Of a DNA stretch of 24,423 nt, positions 2,595-7,850 are shown in pieces. Numbering within the stretch: position 1 is the stretch's first letter; each line of letters starts with the position of its first letter. Source of the DNA: a virus (lineage: Duplodnaviria > Heunggongvirae > Uroviricota > Caudoviricetes); the IMG/VR virus record IMGVR_UViG_2531839474_000007, positions 1-24,423 of that record. The stretch is one strand, 5' to 3'. The notes under the pieces were generated by a model. It was not told where the DNA came from and did no database searches. It worked only from the letters and a program-made list of their open reading frames with translations. A program made the position numbers and the translations under genes.

Positions 2595-3374
2595 CCTGTT
2601 TACCTCTTTCTCAGGGAGTTTAGTCTCCAGGATTCCCGGGGCGGTTCAGGGGGGATATACTTGGCATTAATGCCAACCAATGGCATGTAGCCATAAATGA
2701 CTAATGATAGGTAAAATATAAATGTAGTAATAAAAGTCGCCTTATGGAGCATAGGCAACATTTCATTATAACTCTTTGGTGGTTCTAACATTTTACTCTC
2801 CAAACACTCAAAAAAAAGCTAATCTTCTATAATAACGAAATTCAGCTGGCACAATTAAAGATTAATTGCCACCAATTTCTTGATTTTATAATTTTATCTA
2901 AATGTTTTTGATTAATCTAGTCCTAAAAGAAACCTACTGCATAAATATTTATGCTGATGACCCACTCCCTGTTCGTTAACACATAGCAACGTTAGTAATG
3001 CATCCTAAGTGATCAATATTTTTGCTAGCTTCATCTGCTCGCTCAAAGGGAACTATAATGTTGGCTTGCGTGTGACTTGGCATGTTTAAAGAAGTGCTGG
3101 TGGTGACTGGTTGCTGTTTTCCATTTCCACAGAACAAAATCATAGAAACTATACCCAGTAGTTGTATTGAATCACTGACGAGACAGCCTCATATTTATCA
3201 GGACTGGTGTACGTCCAATACAGGAGGTTGTGGTGCTGGTTCTCAAATGTGCGCTGGCTATTGCTGCTGTAATGGCAATTTATTGTCTTGCTGTTGTTCT
3301 TATGGATCACCTTTCTGATTGATTTCATATTGGCGAGGTAACGGTAGTTAAGTAGAATTGCTGCGGGTGCTTGA

Positions 3375-3412
3375 GGCTATCTGCCTCGGGCATCAACACC
3401 AAAGGCAGATAG
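3375..3412 (+). promoter_or_regulatory. perfect 10-bp inverted repeat (CTATCTGCCT ... AGGCAGATAG) in the hok/mok leader; presumed mRNA structural element
   Basis: Hairpin read directly; no T-run on either strand so not an obvious terminator; lies where hok mRNA 5' regulatory structures and the antisense sok gene are expected. Confidence 0.35.
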
Positions 3413-3476
3413 AGAAAAGCCCCAGTTAACATTACGCGTCCGGCAAGACGCTTAACATTAATCTGAGGCCATATCT

Positions 3477-3689
3477 ATGCTCTACACACGTAGGTTAGCC
3501 TCTTACGTGCCGAAAGGCAAGGAGAAGCAGGCTATGAAGCAGCAAAAGGCGATGTTAATCGCCCTGATCGTCATCTGTTTAACCGTCATAGTGACGGCAC
3601 TGGTAACGAGGAAAGACCTCTGCGAGGTACGAATCCGAACCGGCCAGACGGAGGTCGCTGTCTTCACAGCTTACGAATCTGAGGAGTAA
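3477..3689 (+). CDS. mok: mok-like reading frame (in-frame N-terminal extension overlapping hok)
   Basis: 70-aa ORF with GAGG Shine-Dalgarno 8 nt upstream of ATG 3477; contains the complete Hok frame. Confidence 0.45.
   Translation: MLYTRRLASYVPKGKEKQAMKQQKAMLIALIVICLTVIVTALVTRKDLCEVRIRTGQTEVAVFTAYESEE
3534..3689 (+). CDS. hok: Hok/Gef-family type I toxin (HokD/RelF-like small membrane toxin)
   Basis: 51-aa MKQQKAMLIALIVICLTVIVTALVTRKDLCEVRIRTGQTEVAVFTAYESEE; GGAG Shine-Dalgarno 9 nt upstream; single transmembrane helix plus conserved Cys; near-identical to my recollection of HokD. Confidence 0.85.
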   Translation: MKQQKAMLIALIVICLTVIVTALVTRKDLCEVRIRTGQTEVAVFTAYESEE

Positions 3690-3755
3690 GAGACCCGGCG
3701 GGGGAGAAATCCCTCGCCACCTCTGATGTGTCAGGCATTCTCAACGCACCCGCAT

Positions 3756-5938: not shown

Positions 5939-6624
5939 ATAACCAGTATTTACAGTTTGTGCGTGAGCAGCTCATTATCGCCACCGCTGATTTGAGTGGG
6001 GCAACAAAAGGTCAGCTTGAAGCCTGGCAGGAGAATGCCATGTTCGATACAGGGCGTTACAGGCGTAAAAAAATCCGGTACCGCGATGAAGTGACTGGAA
6101 AAATGATAACGCGGGATAATCCACCAATCCCGGGAAAGCAATCGCTGGCGAAGGGGACGTCAATTCCTCTGGTCAGTCCGATTGAGTTTTCGACATCATC
6201 GTGGCGGCGGGCTGTTCTGTCTCTTGAAGAACATCATAAAGCCTGGTTGTTGTGGTGTTACAGCGGGAGTATTTGTTGGGAATATCAGATCGCGATAACA
6301 CAGTGGGCGTGGAATGAATTTAATACTCAATCCGGTACCAGAAAAATTGCAGGGAAAACGCAGGAACGCCTGAAAAAATTAATCTGGCTGGCGGCGCAGG
6401 CAGTAAAAGCAGAACTTTTTGGTGGGGAAGGTTATGAATACAAGGAGCTGGCATTACTGGTGGGAGTGACAACTAAAAACTGGTCCAAAACATTTACTCG
6501 TCACTGGGTTGCAATGAAACACATTTTTCACCGACTGGATAGTGAGGCTTTATTGTTTGTAATGAGAACGCGTTCAAAACAAAAGGCGGCATTTTCAAAG
6601 CAAAGTGTTGCAAAAGTAGATTGA
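5935..6624 (+). CDS. putative late-gene antiterminator Q (assigned by position)
   Basis: ATG 5935 overlaps the rusA stop (ATGA coupling); 229 aa; immediately followed by a tR'-like terminator and the tRNA cluster; no lambda-Q zinc-finger motif recognised. Confidence 0.45.
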   Translation: MNNQYLQFVREQLIIATADLSGATKGQLEAWQENAMFDTGRYRRKKIRYRDEVTGKMITRDNPPIPGKQSLAKGTSIPLVSPIEFSTSSWRRAVLSLEEHHKAWLLWCYSGSICWEYQIAITQWAWNEFNTQSGTRKIAGKTQERLKKLIWLAAQAVKAELFGGEGYEYKELALLVGVTTKNWSKTFTRHWVAMKHIFHRLDSEALLFVMRTRSKQKAAFSKQSVAKVD

Positions 6625-6687
6625 AAGGCATATATTTCATGCAAATCTGATATTTTGCCGATTTTGTACGTGATGGCAAAAGCAAAC

Positions 6688-6716: not shown

Positions 6717-6834
6717 GCCACTTATCTCGGATAGACATGGTGAATGCGCTGGTGGAGGAAGCAAGGGTAATTTTTAACCAGGTGATTCTTGAATGCTTGC
6801 AACATTGATTTCGTAACGTTATTATCCTGCGCCC

Positions 6835-6910
6835 GGCCCTTTAGCTCAGTGGTGAGAGCGAGCGACTCATAATCGCCAGGCCGCTGGTTCAAATCCAGCA
6901 AGGGCCACCA
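6835..6910 (+). tRNA. tRNA-Ile2 (anticodon CAU, ileX/ileZ-like; lysidine-type) or tRNA-Met
   Basis: 76-nt cloverleaf folded by hand: acceptor GGCCCTT/AAGGGCC, D arm GCTC..GAGC, anticodon loop CTCATAA, T loop TTCAAAT, 3' CCA encoded; close to E. coli ileX as recalled. Confidence 0.85.
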
Positions 6911-6917
6911 TCACATA

Positions 6918-6994
6918 CCGCCATTAGCTCATCGGGATAGAACGCCAGCCTTCGAAGCTGGTTTCGCGGGGTTCGAGTCTCCGATGGCGGTCCA
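6918..6994 (+). tRNA. tRNA-Arg, anticodon UCG as read
   Basis: 77-nt cloverleaf: acceptor CCGCCAT/ATGGCGG, anticodon stem CCAGC/GCTGG with loop CTTCGAA, T arm CGGGG-TTCGAGT-CTCCG, CCA encoded; one D-stem mismatch. Confidence 0.8.
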
Positions 6995-7007
6995 TTATCG
7001 GTATTCT

Positions 7008-7084
7008 GCGTTTTTAGCTCAGCCGGACAGAGCAATTGCCTTCTAAGCAATCGGTCACTGGTTCGAACCCAGTACAACGCACCA
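7008..7084 (+). tRNA. tRNA-Arg, anticodon UCU (argU-like, reads AGA/AGG)
   Basis: 77-nt cloverleaf: anticodon stem ATTGC/GCAAT with loop CTTCTAA, T arm ACTGG-TTCGAAC-CCAGT, CCA encoded; one acceptor-stem mismatch. Confidence 0.8.
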
Positions 7085-7253
7085 CACTTATTTTCCCTCG
7101 CTCGCTTTTGCGGACCTTTTTTGTATCCGCACCACGCCCGGCGCATACCAACCACAGAGCCTTTCGGGGGGAGCTTATGGAGTGGTCAGTGTGACTTTCT
7201 CTGTGGGCAGATCGCTCCCGGGCGTTGGCTCACCCACCCAAAGGAACGTCACG

Positions 7254-7686
7254 ATGTTTGGTATTTTTGGTAAAAAAAGCCCGCAGAGCGGCAACGGAAA
7301 TTAAAAAGTTTGAAAAACGCGATCTGGCACAGGTGGTGATTAACGCCGCATACCTGGTGGCCTGTGCAGATGGTGAATGTGAGGCTTCCTAGAAAGCGAA
7401 GATCGAACAGGTACTGCGTAATCAGCCTGCGCTGTACGCGTTTACGTCAGAAATTAATGCGATTAGCGCAACCATTATCGGTCAGCTGGATACGAACTTT
7501 AAAACTGGTCGTCGTGCGGCGTTACGTGAGATCGAGGATGTGAAACACGATACGCGTGAAGCGGAAGATGTGCTGGATGTGGCGGTGGCCATTGCGGAGG
7601 CAGACGGCGAAATTGAGCCGGAAGAGCGCAAGGTGCTGGAAGAGATTGCCGGTGTTCTGGGTCTTCGTCTGGAGAATTACCTGTGA
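7254..7686 (+). pseudogene. TerB-like (tellurite-resistance TerB-family) gene inactivated by a frameshift and an in-frame amber codon
   Basis: ATG 7254 with AAGGA 8 nt upstream. The frame stops after 16 codons; the +1 frame entered at the A7 tract (7272..7278) continues through two ADG-x5-E type repeats (ACADGECEAS, AEADGEIEPEERKVLEEIAGVLGL) but holds TAG at 7390..7392 before ending at TGA 7684..7686. Confidence 0.55.
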
Positions 7687-7850
7687 CGGTAAAACTGCGC
7701 CTGACTGTGGCTGCACTCCTGCTGTTTCTGGTGGTGATGGTGGATTTCACCAGCAGAATCATGTCGGTGCTGGCGGATGGGGTGCTGGTCTGCGGCATTA
7801 TGGTATTGCTGTGGCCGGTGATAAAAAGAAACAGCCTGCATAATGCTTGA
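7683..7850 (+). CDS. small hydrophobic protein (about 55 aa) translationally coupled to the TerB-like gene
   Basis: GTG 7683 overlaps the upstream TGA (GTGA); two hydrophobic segments (VAALLLFLVVMV, VLVCGIMVLLWPV); alternative ATG starts at 7737 and 7761; below the ORF-track size cutoff. Confidence 0.3.
   Translation: MTVKLRLTVAALLLFLVVMVDFTSRIMSVLADGVLVCGIMVLLWPVIKRNSLHNA

Follow-up and report, generated by a model that had tools for sequence, protein, structure and literature searches.

A tciB homologue of the DUF3927 family overlapping a TerB-family pseudogene in a lambdoid prophage of Escherichia coli

A frame of 55 codons opens on the stop codon of a TerB-like gene in the window examined here (the whole 24,423 nt stretch of IMG/VR record IMGVR_UViG_2531839474_000007), and it raises the question of whether so short a frame is a gene and, if it is, what a small hydrophobic protein might do beside a protein of the TerB fold. 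The original prediction described it as an unannotated ORF in a format that recurs among toxin, immunity and regulatory peptides. The element that carries it is a lambdoid prophage of E. coli, and the frame is referred to below as tciB, after its homologue in phage P1, with the upstream TerB-family gene as tciA.

The reading frame and its family

The ORF occupies nt 7683–7850 of the plus strand, runs from a GTG start to a TGA stop, and specifies a protein of 55 aa (MTVKLRLTVAALLLFLVVMVDFTSRIMSVLADGVLVCGIMVLLWPVIKRNSLHNA) annotated here as a DUF3927 small membrane protein. The junction with the preceding frame reads tacctGTGAcgg, with ccTGTGAcgg at nt 7680–7689; in the bases G7683, T7684, G7685 and A7686 the tciB GTG and the TGA of the TerB frame (nt 7684–7686) have three bases in common, so that the GTGA overlap described originally is seen at nt 7683–7686. 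The hydropathy profile of TciB has maxima near residues 14 and 38 and a dip at residues 26–28, which bears out the description of a 55-codon frame with two hydrophobic segments. These segments (approximately residues 5–20 and 34–47) lie on either side of a polar stripe, D21, R25, S28 and D32, the members of which fall within ±40° on a helical wheel of the central segment DFTSRIMSVLADG. Basic residues are present at both ends of the protein (K4 and R6; K48 and R49), and the second hydrophobic stretch terminates in WP before the basic residues begin. A Shine‒Dalgarno-like GGAG (nt 7671–7674, plus strand) is found 8 nt 5' of the GTG, inside Leu-Glu-Asn codons of the TerB frame. Homologous loci (L002–L009 and P1) carry GGAG, GGAA or GGAT at an equal distance from the start, and the element probably acts as the ribosome-binding site of tciB. 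RNA folding at the stop/start junction gave a z-score of −0.5, with no sign of a regulatory hairpin.

The length of the frame is not in itself above chance, as the same stretch also holds an antisense ORF of 166 aa (nt 7499–7999) and an ORF of 95 aa in another frame (nt 7556–7843). The case for a real gene comes instead from homology and from the signal of selection. The protein matches Pfam PF13064 (DUF3927) with an E-value of 1.7e-16 and 60.4 bits (cut-off, 25 bits), residues 3–51 aligning to positions 2–50 of the 53 in the profile, and matches PHROG 1470 ('TciB-like') over positions 1–54 of 54 (E 1.8e-29). In pairs of homologues with dS of 0.45–1.4, the Nei‒Gojobori (NG86) pN/pS ratio of the tciB frame is about 0.15–0.45. 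When the three frames were compared over the same nucleotides, the tciB frame gave 0.22–0.41; the other two give values of at least 1.07 and are interrupted by stops in most sequences. The 166-aa and 95-aa ORFs were both rejected as genes, the pN/pS of their frames being at least 1. Within tciB, constraint is uneven: the pooled ratio is 0.56 for codons 2–18 and 0.42 for codons 2–26, indicating purifying selection, and the C-terminal tail evolves almost neutrally (0.85).

Homologues were found in prophages of Enterobacterales, in P1-like plasmids and in metagenomes. Conservation of the frame in homologous prophages was the test by which the original prediction would stand or fall, and the ORF proved to be intact, at 49–62 aa, in Franconibacter, Pantoea stewartii, an Enterobacterales isolate, metagenome-assembled genomes, Logan contigs and P1. 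In every homologue the start codon, ATG or GTG, overlaps or abuts the upstream stop; it is this start, giving the full-length protein, that is conserved. The in-frame ATG codons noted at nt 7737 (codon 19) and nt 7761 (codon 27) are both present. The shorter products proposed from them are unlikely, since Met19 is a methionine only in the E. coli subgroup, Met27 alternates with leucine, and codons 2–26 are under purifying selection. Taken together, similarity and codon-level constraint make it nearly certain that the frame is a genuine tciB/DUF3927 gene.

The description of the ORF as unannotated has to be withdrawn. A segment of 1071 nt (window nt 7100–8170) is identical to E. coli AMSHJX01, in which the CDS of RefSeq protein WP_000216649.1, 'DUF3927 family protein', has exactly the bounds of tciB, and the PGAP pipeline annotates members of this family routinely. 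The 168-nt ORF was matched in 1342 of 5426 complete E. coli genomes (about 25%), at up to 10 places per genome, and among the 25 matches listed all except the weakest fall on a gene annotated as 'DUF3927 family protein'. Several phage records, for example those of 434, 2B8 and Pollock, name the homologue 'TciB' or 'TciB-like', and PHROG classes both genes of the pair under 'moron, auxiliary metabolic gene and host takeover'. The gene is thus already known and routinely annotated (Pfam, PHROG, RefSeq); it has borne its name in phage P1 for twenty years and carries little weight as a discovery.

When 1.84 billion representative proteins were searched with a profile of the family, only 118 clusters were returned, nearly all of them of 45–65 aa and of the same architecture. 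No genuine TerB‒DUF3927 fusion was present among these 118 representative clusters; four longer hits (P0131, P0168, P0170 and P0227) were considered as fusions and rejected as out-of-frame or chimeric gene calls. Family members were defined as stand-alone proteins of about 50–66 aa with two hydrophobic stretches and a central VDF(T/A)S..(M/L)S...D motif, and the 55-aa protein has all of these features. Across 53 diverse members, D21, S28 and D32 are at least 90% conserved, with arginine or lysine common at position 25, and the three occupy a single face of the helix, in the part that separates the two hydrophobic stretches. A search of the PDB returned no relative of DUF3927, and NCBIfam holds no model for the small protein. 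In the literature searched, 'DUF3927' was met in two papers, each time as a label in a figure legend, searches by accession and family identifier were empty, and no report of toxicity or immunity was found for the family.

The TerB partner and the genomic setting

The upstream gene (nt 7254–7686, plus strand) is a tciA homologue of the TerB family, the TGA of which (nt 7684–7686) overlaps the tciB start, and in this prophage it is a pseudogene. An in-frame TAG at nt 7390–7392, 291 nt 5' of the tciB start, replaces a codon that is GAG in intact alleles. Near the 5' end, a run of seven A residues (A7, nt 7272–7278) occurs where alleles that use the ATG at nt 7254 have six, which puts this usual start of the family out of frame; the pseudogene called by PGAP starts instead at a TTG (nt 7258). 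PGAP flags the gene as 'pseudo, internal stop', in agreement with its alignment to the intact gene of locus L002. The repaired translation matches Pfam TerB (E 4.5e-13), and a match to PHROG 632 was obtained as well. The TAG allele is not peculiar to the window: about 78 prophage loci having the 55-aa form were sampled, and 41 of them share it, with TciB intact. Another locus (L025) combines an intact TerB gene with a TciB identical to that of the window. The arrangement that defines the cassette, a tciB placed directly 3' of a same-strand TerB-family gene with overlapping or adjacent ends, is found in the window, with one of its two genes broken (tciA) and the other intact (tciB). With tciA interrupted 291 nt upstream, any TciB made here would have to come from independent initiation at GGAG-N8-GTG, and translation of this copy is expected to use its own GGAG site.

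Coupling to the TerB-like gene, which was part of the original prediction, turned out to be a conserved feature of the family, the junctions taking the form GTGA, an ATGA-type overlap, TGATG or TAATG. In loci L002–L007, L009, L090–L094 and L098, in P1, and in most independent contexts of the DUF3927 gene, the gene immediately before it is TerB, the stop of which overlaps or adjoins the DUF3927 start. When the search was made from the TerB side, the start of the DUF3927 ORF overlapped the TerB stop in 80 of 80 sampled IMG/VR loci, the overlap being of 4 nt in 64 of them and of 1 nt in the other 16; these loci were retrieved with an alignment led by P1 TciA, so the count refers to TerB genes of the P1-TciA-like kind. 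The two genes are also adjacent in phage-plasmids of the pSLy3 type (PMC9600943) and in D6-like plasmids (PMC6799933). Cases of DUF3927 separated from TerB do occur. Phage 434 and 2B8 carry a DUF3927 protein with a variant N-terminus, preceded by a multi-pass membrane protein of 247 aa; in L097 the order is Q, a gap, the DUF3927-like gene, holin and lysozyme, with no TerB; and in L096 an exonuclease-like gene precedes DUF3927, again without TerB. In L008 and L184, truncated DUF3927 remnants are fused directly onto a tRNA gene.

The gene order in the window is a DUF968 gene, RusA, the Q antiterminator, tRNA-Ile2(CAU), two tRNA-Arg genes, the tciA pseudogene and tciB, followed by the STnc100 sRNA, a SASA esterase, an IS element, holin, lysozyme and spanin. 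A short ORF at nt 7843–7938 (31 aa) was examined as an equivalent of P1 tciC and rejected, being dissimilar to P1 TciC and lying inside the STnc100 sRNA. In lambdoid prophages the cassette follows the Q antiterminator/tRNA cluster and precedes the lysis genes; Stx phages carry stx in this region, after the Q/tRNA cluster and ahead of the esterase and lysis genes. Franconibacter and Pantoea likewise have it between a Q-like gene and the lysis cassette, the distance to the holin-like ORF being 1.1 kb in L003 and 0.4 kb in L006. The cassette of P1 and P1-like plasmids stands amid tRNA genes in the C1-controlled ban operon. The timing of expression thus differs between phages, as would suit cargo better than a core function of the phage. 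No promoter-like site was found directly upstream of tciA. The nearest ones, at nt 6608–6636 (the end of Q) and nt 6797–6825 (before the tRNA genes), are consensus matches only, as is a minus-strand site inside tciB (nt 7824–7797). The locus is probably silent in lysogens.

A proposed role and its alternatives

Domains of the TerB fold work at the cytoplasmic face of the inner membrane. TerB works with the membrane protein TerC, and DjlA and DUF533/YebE have a transmembrane (TM) segment of their own. Against this background, tciA (TerB fold) followed by tciB may be read as a two-gene cassette of P1, P1-like plasmids and many lambdoid prophages, in which TciB, an all-helical small protein of the inner membrane, would serve as the membrane partner of a cytoplasmic TciA, the pair representing a split version of the membrane-tethered TerB modules. 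Ribosomes that finish tciA would normally re-initiate on tciB; in the window, TciB would act without TciA. The cassette would be accessory 'moron' cargo, dispensable for phage growth, and would probably change the way in which an infected or lysogenic cell copes with membrane or ion stress, or with colicins and phages arriving from outside. As a whole, this account of a tciB gene whose product partners TciA within an accessory cassette is the explanation we favour, with somewhat better than even confidence. A functional partnership between the two proteins is, taken separately, likely. Counting against it are the loci in which TerB is truncated while TciB is intact (the window, and the 41 of about 78 loci with the TAG allele), the TerB-less DUF3927 genes of 434, L097 and L096, and the lack of a TerB‒DUF3927 fusion among the 118 clusters.

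The membrane topology bears on the form such a partnership could take. An N-in/C-in helical hairpin is suggested by the lengths of the hydrophobic segments and the positive-inside rule only; AlphaFold2, run on TciB alone with an alignment of 53 sequences, returned one continuous helix over residues 3–53 (pLDDT 91) and no hairpin contact. With both ends inside, the D21/S28/D32 stripe would be turned toward the periplasm, and the tails on the cytoplasmic side would be short, the C-terminal one evolving near neutrality, so that the protein is a poor fit to a model in which it anchors TciA. That TciB is the physical anchor of TciA is put forward tentatively, as something we doubt rather than expect. 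A more ambitious reading, which we consider improbable, would make tciA‒tciB a minimal membrane-surveillance module of temperate phages, in which a TerB-fold sensor gates an oligomeric TciB channel built around D21, S28 and D32, the thing sensed being a change in cytoplasmic ions or metals or a perturbation of the membrane. If it were true, superinfection exclusion, protection from colicins or a tuning of lysis would be the expected outcomes, and one would see in the common TerB-null alleles derivatives that are either 'unregulated' or inactive.

The main rival to partnership is that TciB is a self-sufficient small membrane effector, with TciA only a regulator or dispensable, and that it oligomerises through D21/S28/D32 or binds a host membrane protein so as to affect ion flux, the proton-motive force, division or the timing of lysis. 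Several observations are in line with this. DUF3927 occurs without TerB in 434, 2B8, L096 and L097 (directly before holin and lysozyme in the last), and many loci with the TerB TAG carry an intact and identical ORF. Conservation is strongest in the membrane-embedded centre rather than in the tails, the cassette precedes the lysis genes in Franconibacter and Pantoea (L003 and L006), and the Dionysus system pairs TerB with a pore-forming membrane protein. However, tciB overlaps a TciA-type TerB gene in all 80 loci of the TerB-side sample and is TerB-coupled in most independent contexts, while the TerB-less cases are few or resemble rearranged remnants (L099, L008 and L184). In P1, moreover, the gene is non-essential and forms part of the C1-controlled ban operon, a long way from the lysis genes. 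The protein has no match to a holin or toxin family in Pfam, nor any in PADLOC. On this evidence we consider a self-sufficient effector unlikely, though a serious contender. A toxin‒antidote pair would fit the format of the locus, where translation of a short hydrophobic peptide is coupled to that of a larger gene; TciB would then be a membrane toxin, with immunity supplied by TciA or by an antisense RNA. The minus-strand promoter-like site at nt 7824–7797, a consensus match only, could be cited in its favour; however, Rfam detects no antitoxin RNA in the ORF in either orientation, and the real hok/sok module of the window is located elsewhere. Alleles that join a nonsense-mutated TerB to an intact TciB are common, which is unexpected if TerB is the antidote, and they argue weakly against a toxin neutralised by TerB, as repression in the lysogen could mask toxicity. 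The lack of a PADLOC match and the accessory, in P1 non-essential, nature of the family point the same way, and we hold a toxin‒antidote pair to be very improbable.

There is also the view that this particular copy has no function, being the remnant of a decaying cassette or yielding only a shorter product from the ATG at nt 7737 or 7761. The pseudogene state of its partner, the IS insertions in the prophage, the truncated DUF3927 remnants in L008 and L184 and the GTG start could all be taken as signs of decay. Against them, the ORF is of full length and its product is identical to that of the L025 locus, where TerB is intact; the GGAG is kept at optimal spacing; and selection across the family covers the N-terminal codons, with Met19 and Met27 not conserved as starts. 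Loss of function is accordingly the least credible of the alternatives. What still lends the locus some value is how common the cassette is, together with its cargo position in the late region of lambdoid prophages, downstream of Q and the phage tRNA genes. The locus also makes a compact starting point for further work, with the 80 of 80 overlaps, the D-S-D stripe, the natural TerB-null alleles and the TerB-less variants of phage 434.

Relation to known systems

The small size and membrane character of TciB invite comparison with holins and with type I toxins. A Pfam scan of the window protein returned no holin or toxin family. The window has its own, separate class II holin, which in an IS-free relative is situated about 2.6 kb downstream of tciB, and in the window the distance is greater than this because of the IS element. 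Similarly, P1 tciB is placed in the ban operon and not with the lysis genes, and a DUF3927-like gene abuts a holin only in L097. The antisense RNA that marks a type I toxin is not seen at tciB, as an Rfam search of both strands of nt 7683–7850 returned no antitoxin RNA. The window does carry a hok/sok module, at nt 3365–3702, in which the sok RNA (nt 3365–3539) adjoins hokD.

TerB proteins have been described as amphitropic and as occurring beside membrane effectors in defence systems (bioRxiv 10.1101/2025.09.30.679545). Dionysus (DinB with the pore-forming DinC), Shango (SngA) and Bunzi (BnzA) resemble the cassette in placing a TerB protein beside a membrane protein on a mobile element, but they have extra or much larger components, unlike tciAB. 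In PADLOC-DB v2 no match was found for the 55-aa protein, and the TerB-like protein matched only PDC-S48, at a level that is not significant (E 0.0025, 14.9 bits).

The upstream gene matches TerB of the terZABCDE operon (PDB 2JXU) along its full length (E 4.4e-8), and the cassette is like the ter operon in having a soluble TerB-fold gene beside a gene for a membrane protein. It differs in that no other ter genes are present here and in that a peptide of 55 aa stands in place of the multi-pass TerC as the membrane component. Similarity of the TerB-like protein to the N-terminal region of DjlA (NCBIfam DjlA, E 4.3e-7) and to DUF533/YebE (Pfam DUF533, E 1.5e-5) is below the cut-off in both cases. 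In those proteins the TM segment and the TerB domain are joined in one polypeptide whereas here they are specified by two genes, so the likeness is one of mechanistic analogy and not of membership.

The closest known counterpart is the tciABC cassette of P1, where the names tciA, tciB and tciC were given 'by homology' only according to the P1 record. All three genes are non-essential by CRISPRi (PMC10695390), and about half of the P1 subgroup-1 plasmids are without the operon (PMC9603915). P1 differs from the window in the presence of tciC, a further tiny gene for a 35-aa product with one TM segment, which has no equivalent in the window, in carrying the cassette in the C1-repressed early ban operon rather than downstream of Q in the late region, and in having a tciA that is not a pseudogene. 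The intact TerB of the L002 allele shares 41% identity with P1 TciA (E 7e-33). P1 TciB (YP_006541.1), at 54 aa against 55, is 51% identical to the window protein over 51 residues (BLASTP, E 2e-12), and the two have a common core, VDFTS..(M/L)SVL.DG..V...WP..K. In both P1 and the window, the start of tciB overlaps the stop of a preceding TerB-family gene, and phage tRNA genes adjoin the pair.

Allelic state of the tciA–tciB cassette

The TerB-family gene tciA (7254–7686) is a pseudogene, in which TAG replaces GAG at 7390–7392. The identical TAG was seen at 41 loci in a sample of about 78 from prophages, with tciB, the DUF3927 ORF directly downstream, intact. The allele also has a run of seven A residues (A7) at 7272–7278 of tciA, compared to six (A6) in other alleles. 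Eight of the sampled A7 alleles lack the TAG and have an open TerB frame, so TTG 7258 rather than ATG 7254 may be their TerB start. Two mechanically called ORFs overlap both tciA and tciB, one antisense (7499–7999, − strand, 166 aa) and one in another frame (7556–7843, + strand, 95 aa). Both were rejected as genes because their substitution patterns lack coding constraint, with pN/pS values of at least 1 in both frames (0.2–0.45 in the tciB frame).

tRNA linkage, remnants and variants of tciB

Phage tRNA genes adjoin the tciA–tciB cassette in unrelated phage types (window 6835–7084; comparison loci L003, L009, L102/L103 and L185). In lambdoid prophages these specify Ile2(CAU)/Arg/Arg, or Ser in Franconibacter, and in P1-like plasmids Asn/Thr/Ile. 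A truncated, 38-aa DUF3927 ORF recurs just 3′ of a tRNA gene, in E. albertii (L008, 3974–4090) and in E. coli W60 (L184, 3003–3119); a deletion has removed TerB along with the 5′ third of tciB. The L008 junction lies within a truncated tRNA gene, and the L184 remnant is still labelled 'DUF3927 family protein' by PGAP.

A variant TciB is found in phage 434 (L101, 3112–4099) and at loci L041 and L099. Its N-terminal 20 residues differ (LFYKLCLLAVVILLLVMVMM), the apparent start is TTG with no clear SD, and no intact TerB precedes it; in phage 434 the upstream gene specifies a 247-aa multi-pass membrane protein. The breakpoint of the recombination appears to fall within the small ORF. A more distant DUF3927-like protein of 62 aa (L097, 4001–4189) has a very basic C-tail (ERRKKGKHRRKKRR), and its gene is directly 5′ of the holin and lysozyme genes. 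The 437-nt gap that follows the antiterminator gene Q at this locus contains no TerB gene.

The hok/sok module and IS copies

A sok antitoxin RNA (3365–3539, + strand; Rfam RF01794, 114 bits) adjoins a hokD-type toxin gene (about 3547–3702), and this pair is the genuine small-membrane-toxin module of the prophage. The window also carries two inverted, 100% identical IS copies of 1310 bp (1339–2648, − strand; 10,025–11,334, + strand), each with a match to the ALIL frameshift pseudoknot, a mark of the IS3 family. The second copy sits between the SASA esterase and holin genes, and is missing from the otherwise matching prophage of E. coli record AMSHJX01. Because of this insertion, the lysis genes are probably no longer coupled to the late transcript.

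The STnc100-family sRNA downstream of tciB

The first base of an STnc100-family sRNA (7855–8027, + strand; Rfam RF02076, 100.8 bits) lies 5 nt past the tciB stop, and a terminator-like hairpin is at 8052–8079. A search for promoter-like sites on the + strand within tciB found none, so the sRNA might be processed out of the tciAB 3′ end. In EHEC, 11 copies of the STnc100 family are expressed (PMC5331693). A 2026 preprint relates the PasD sRNAs to STnc100 and gives TerB as one conserved neighbour of PasA/PasC.
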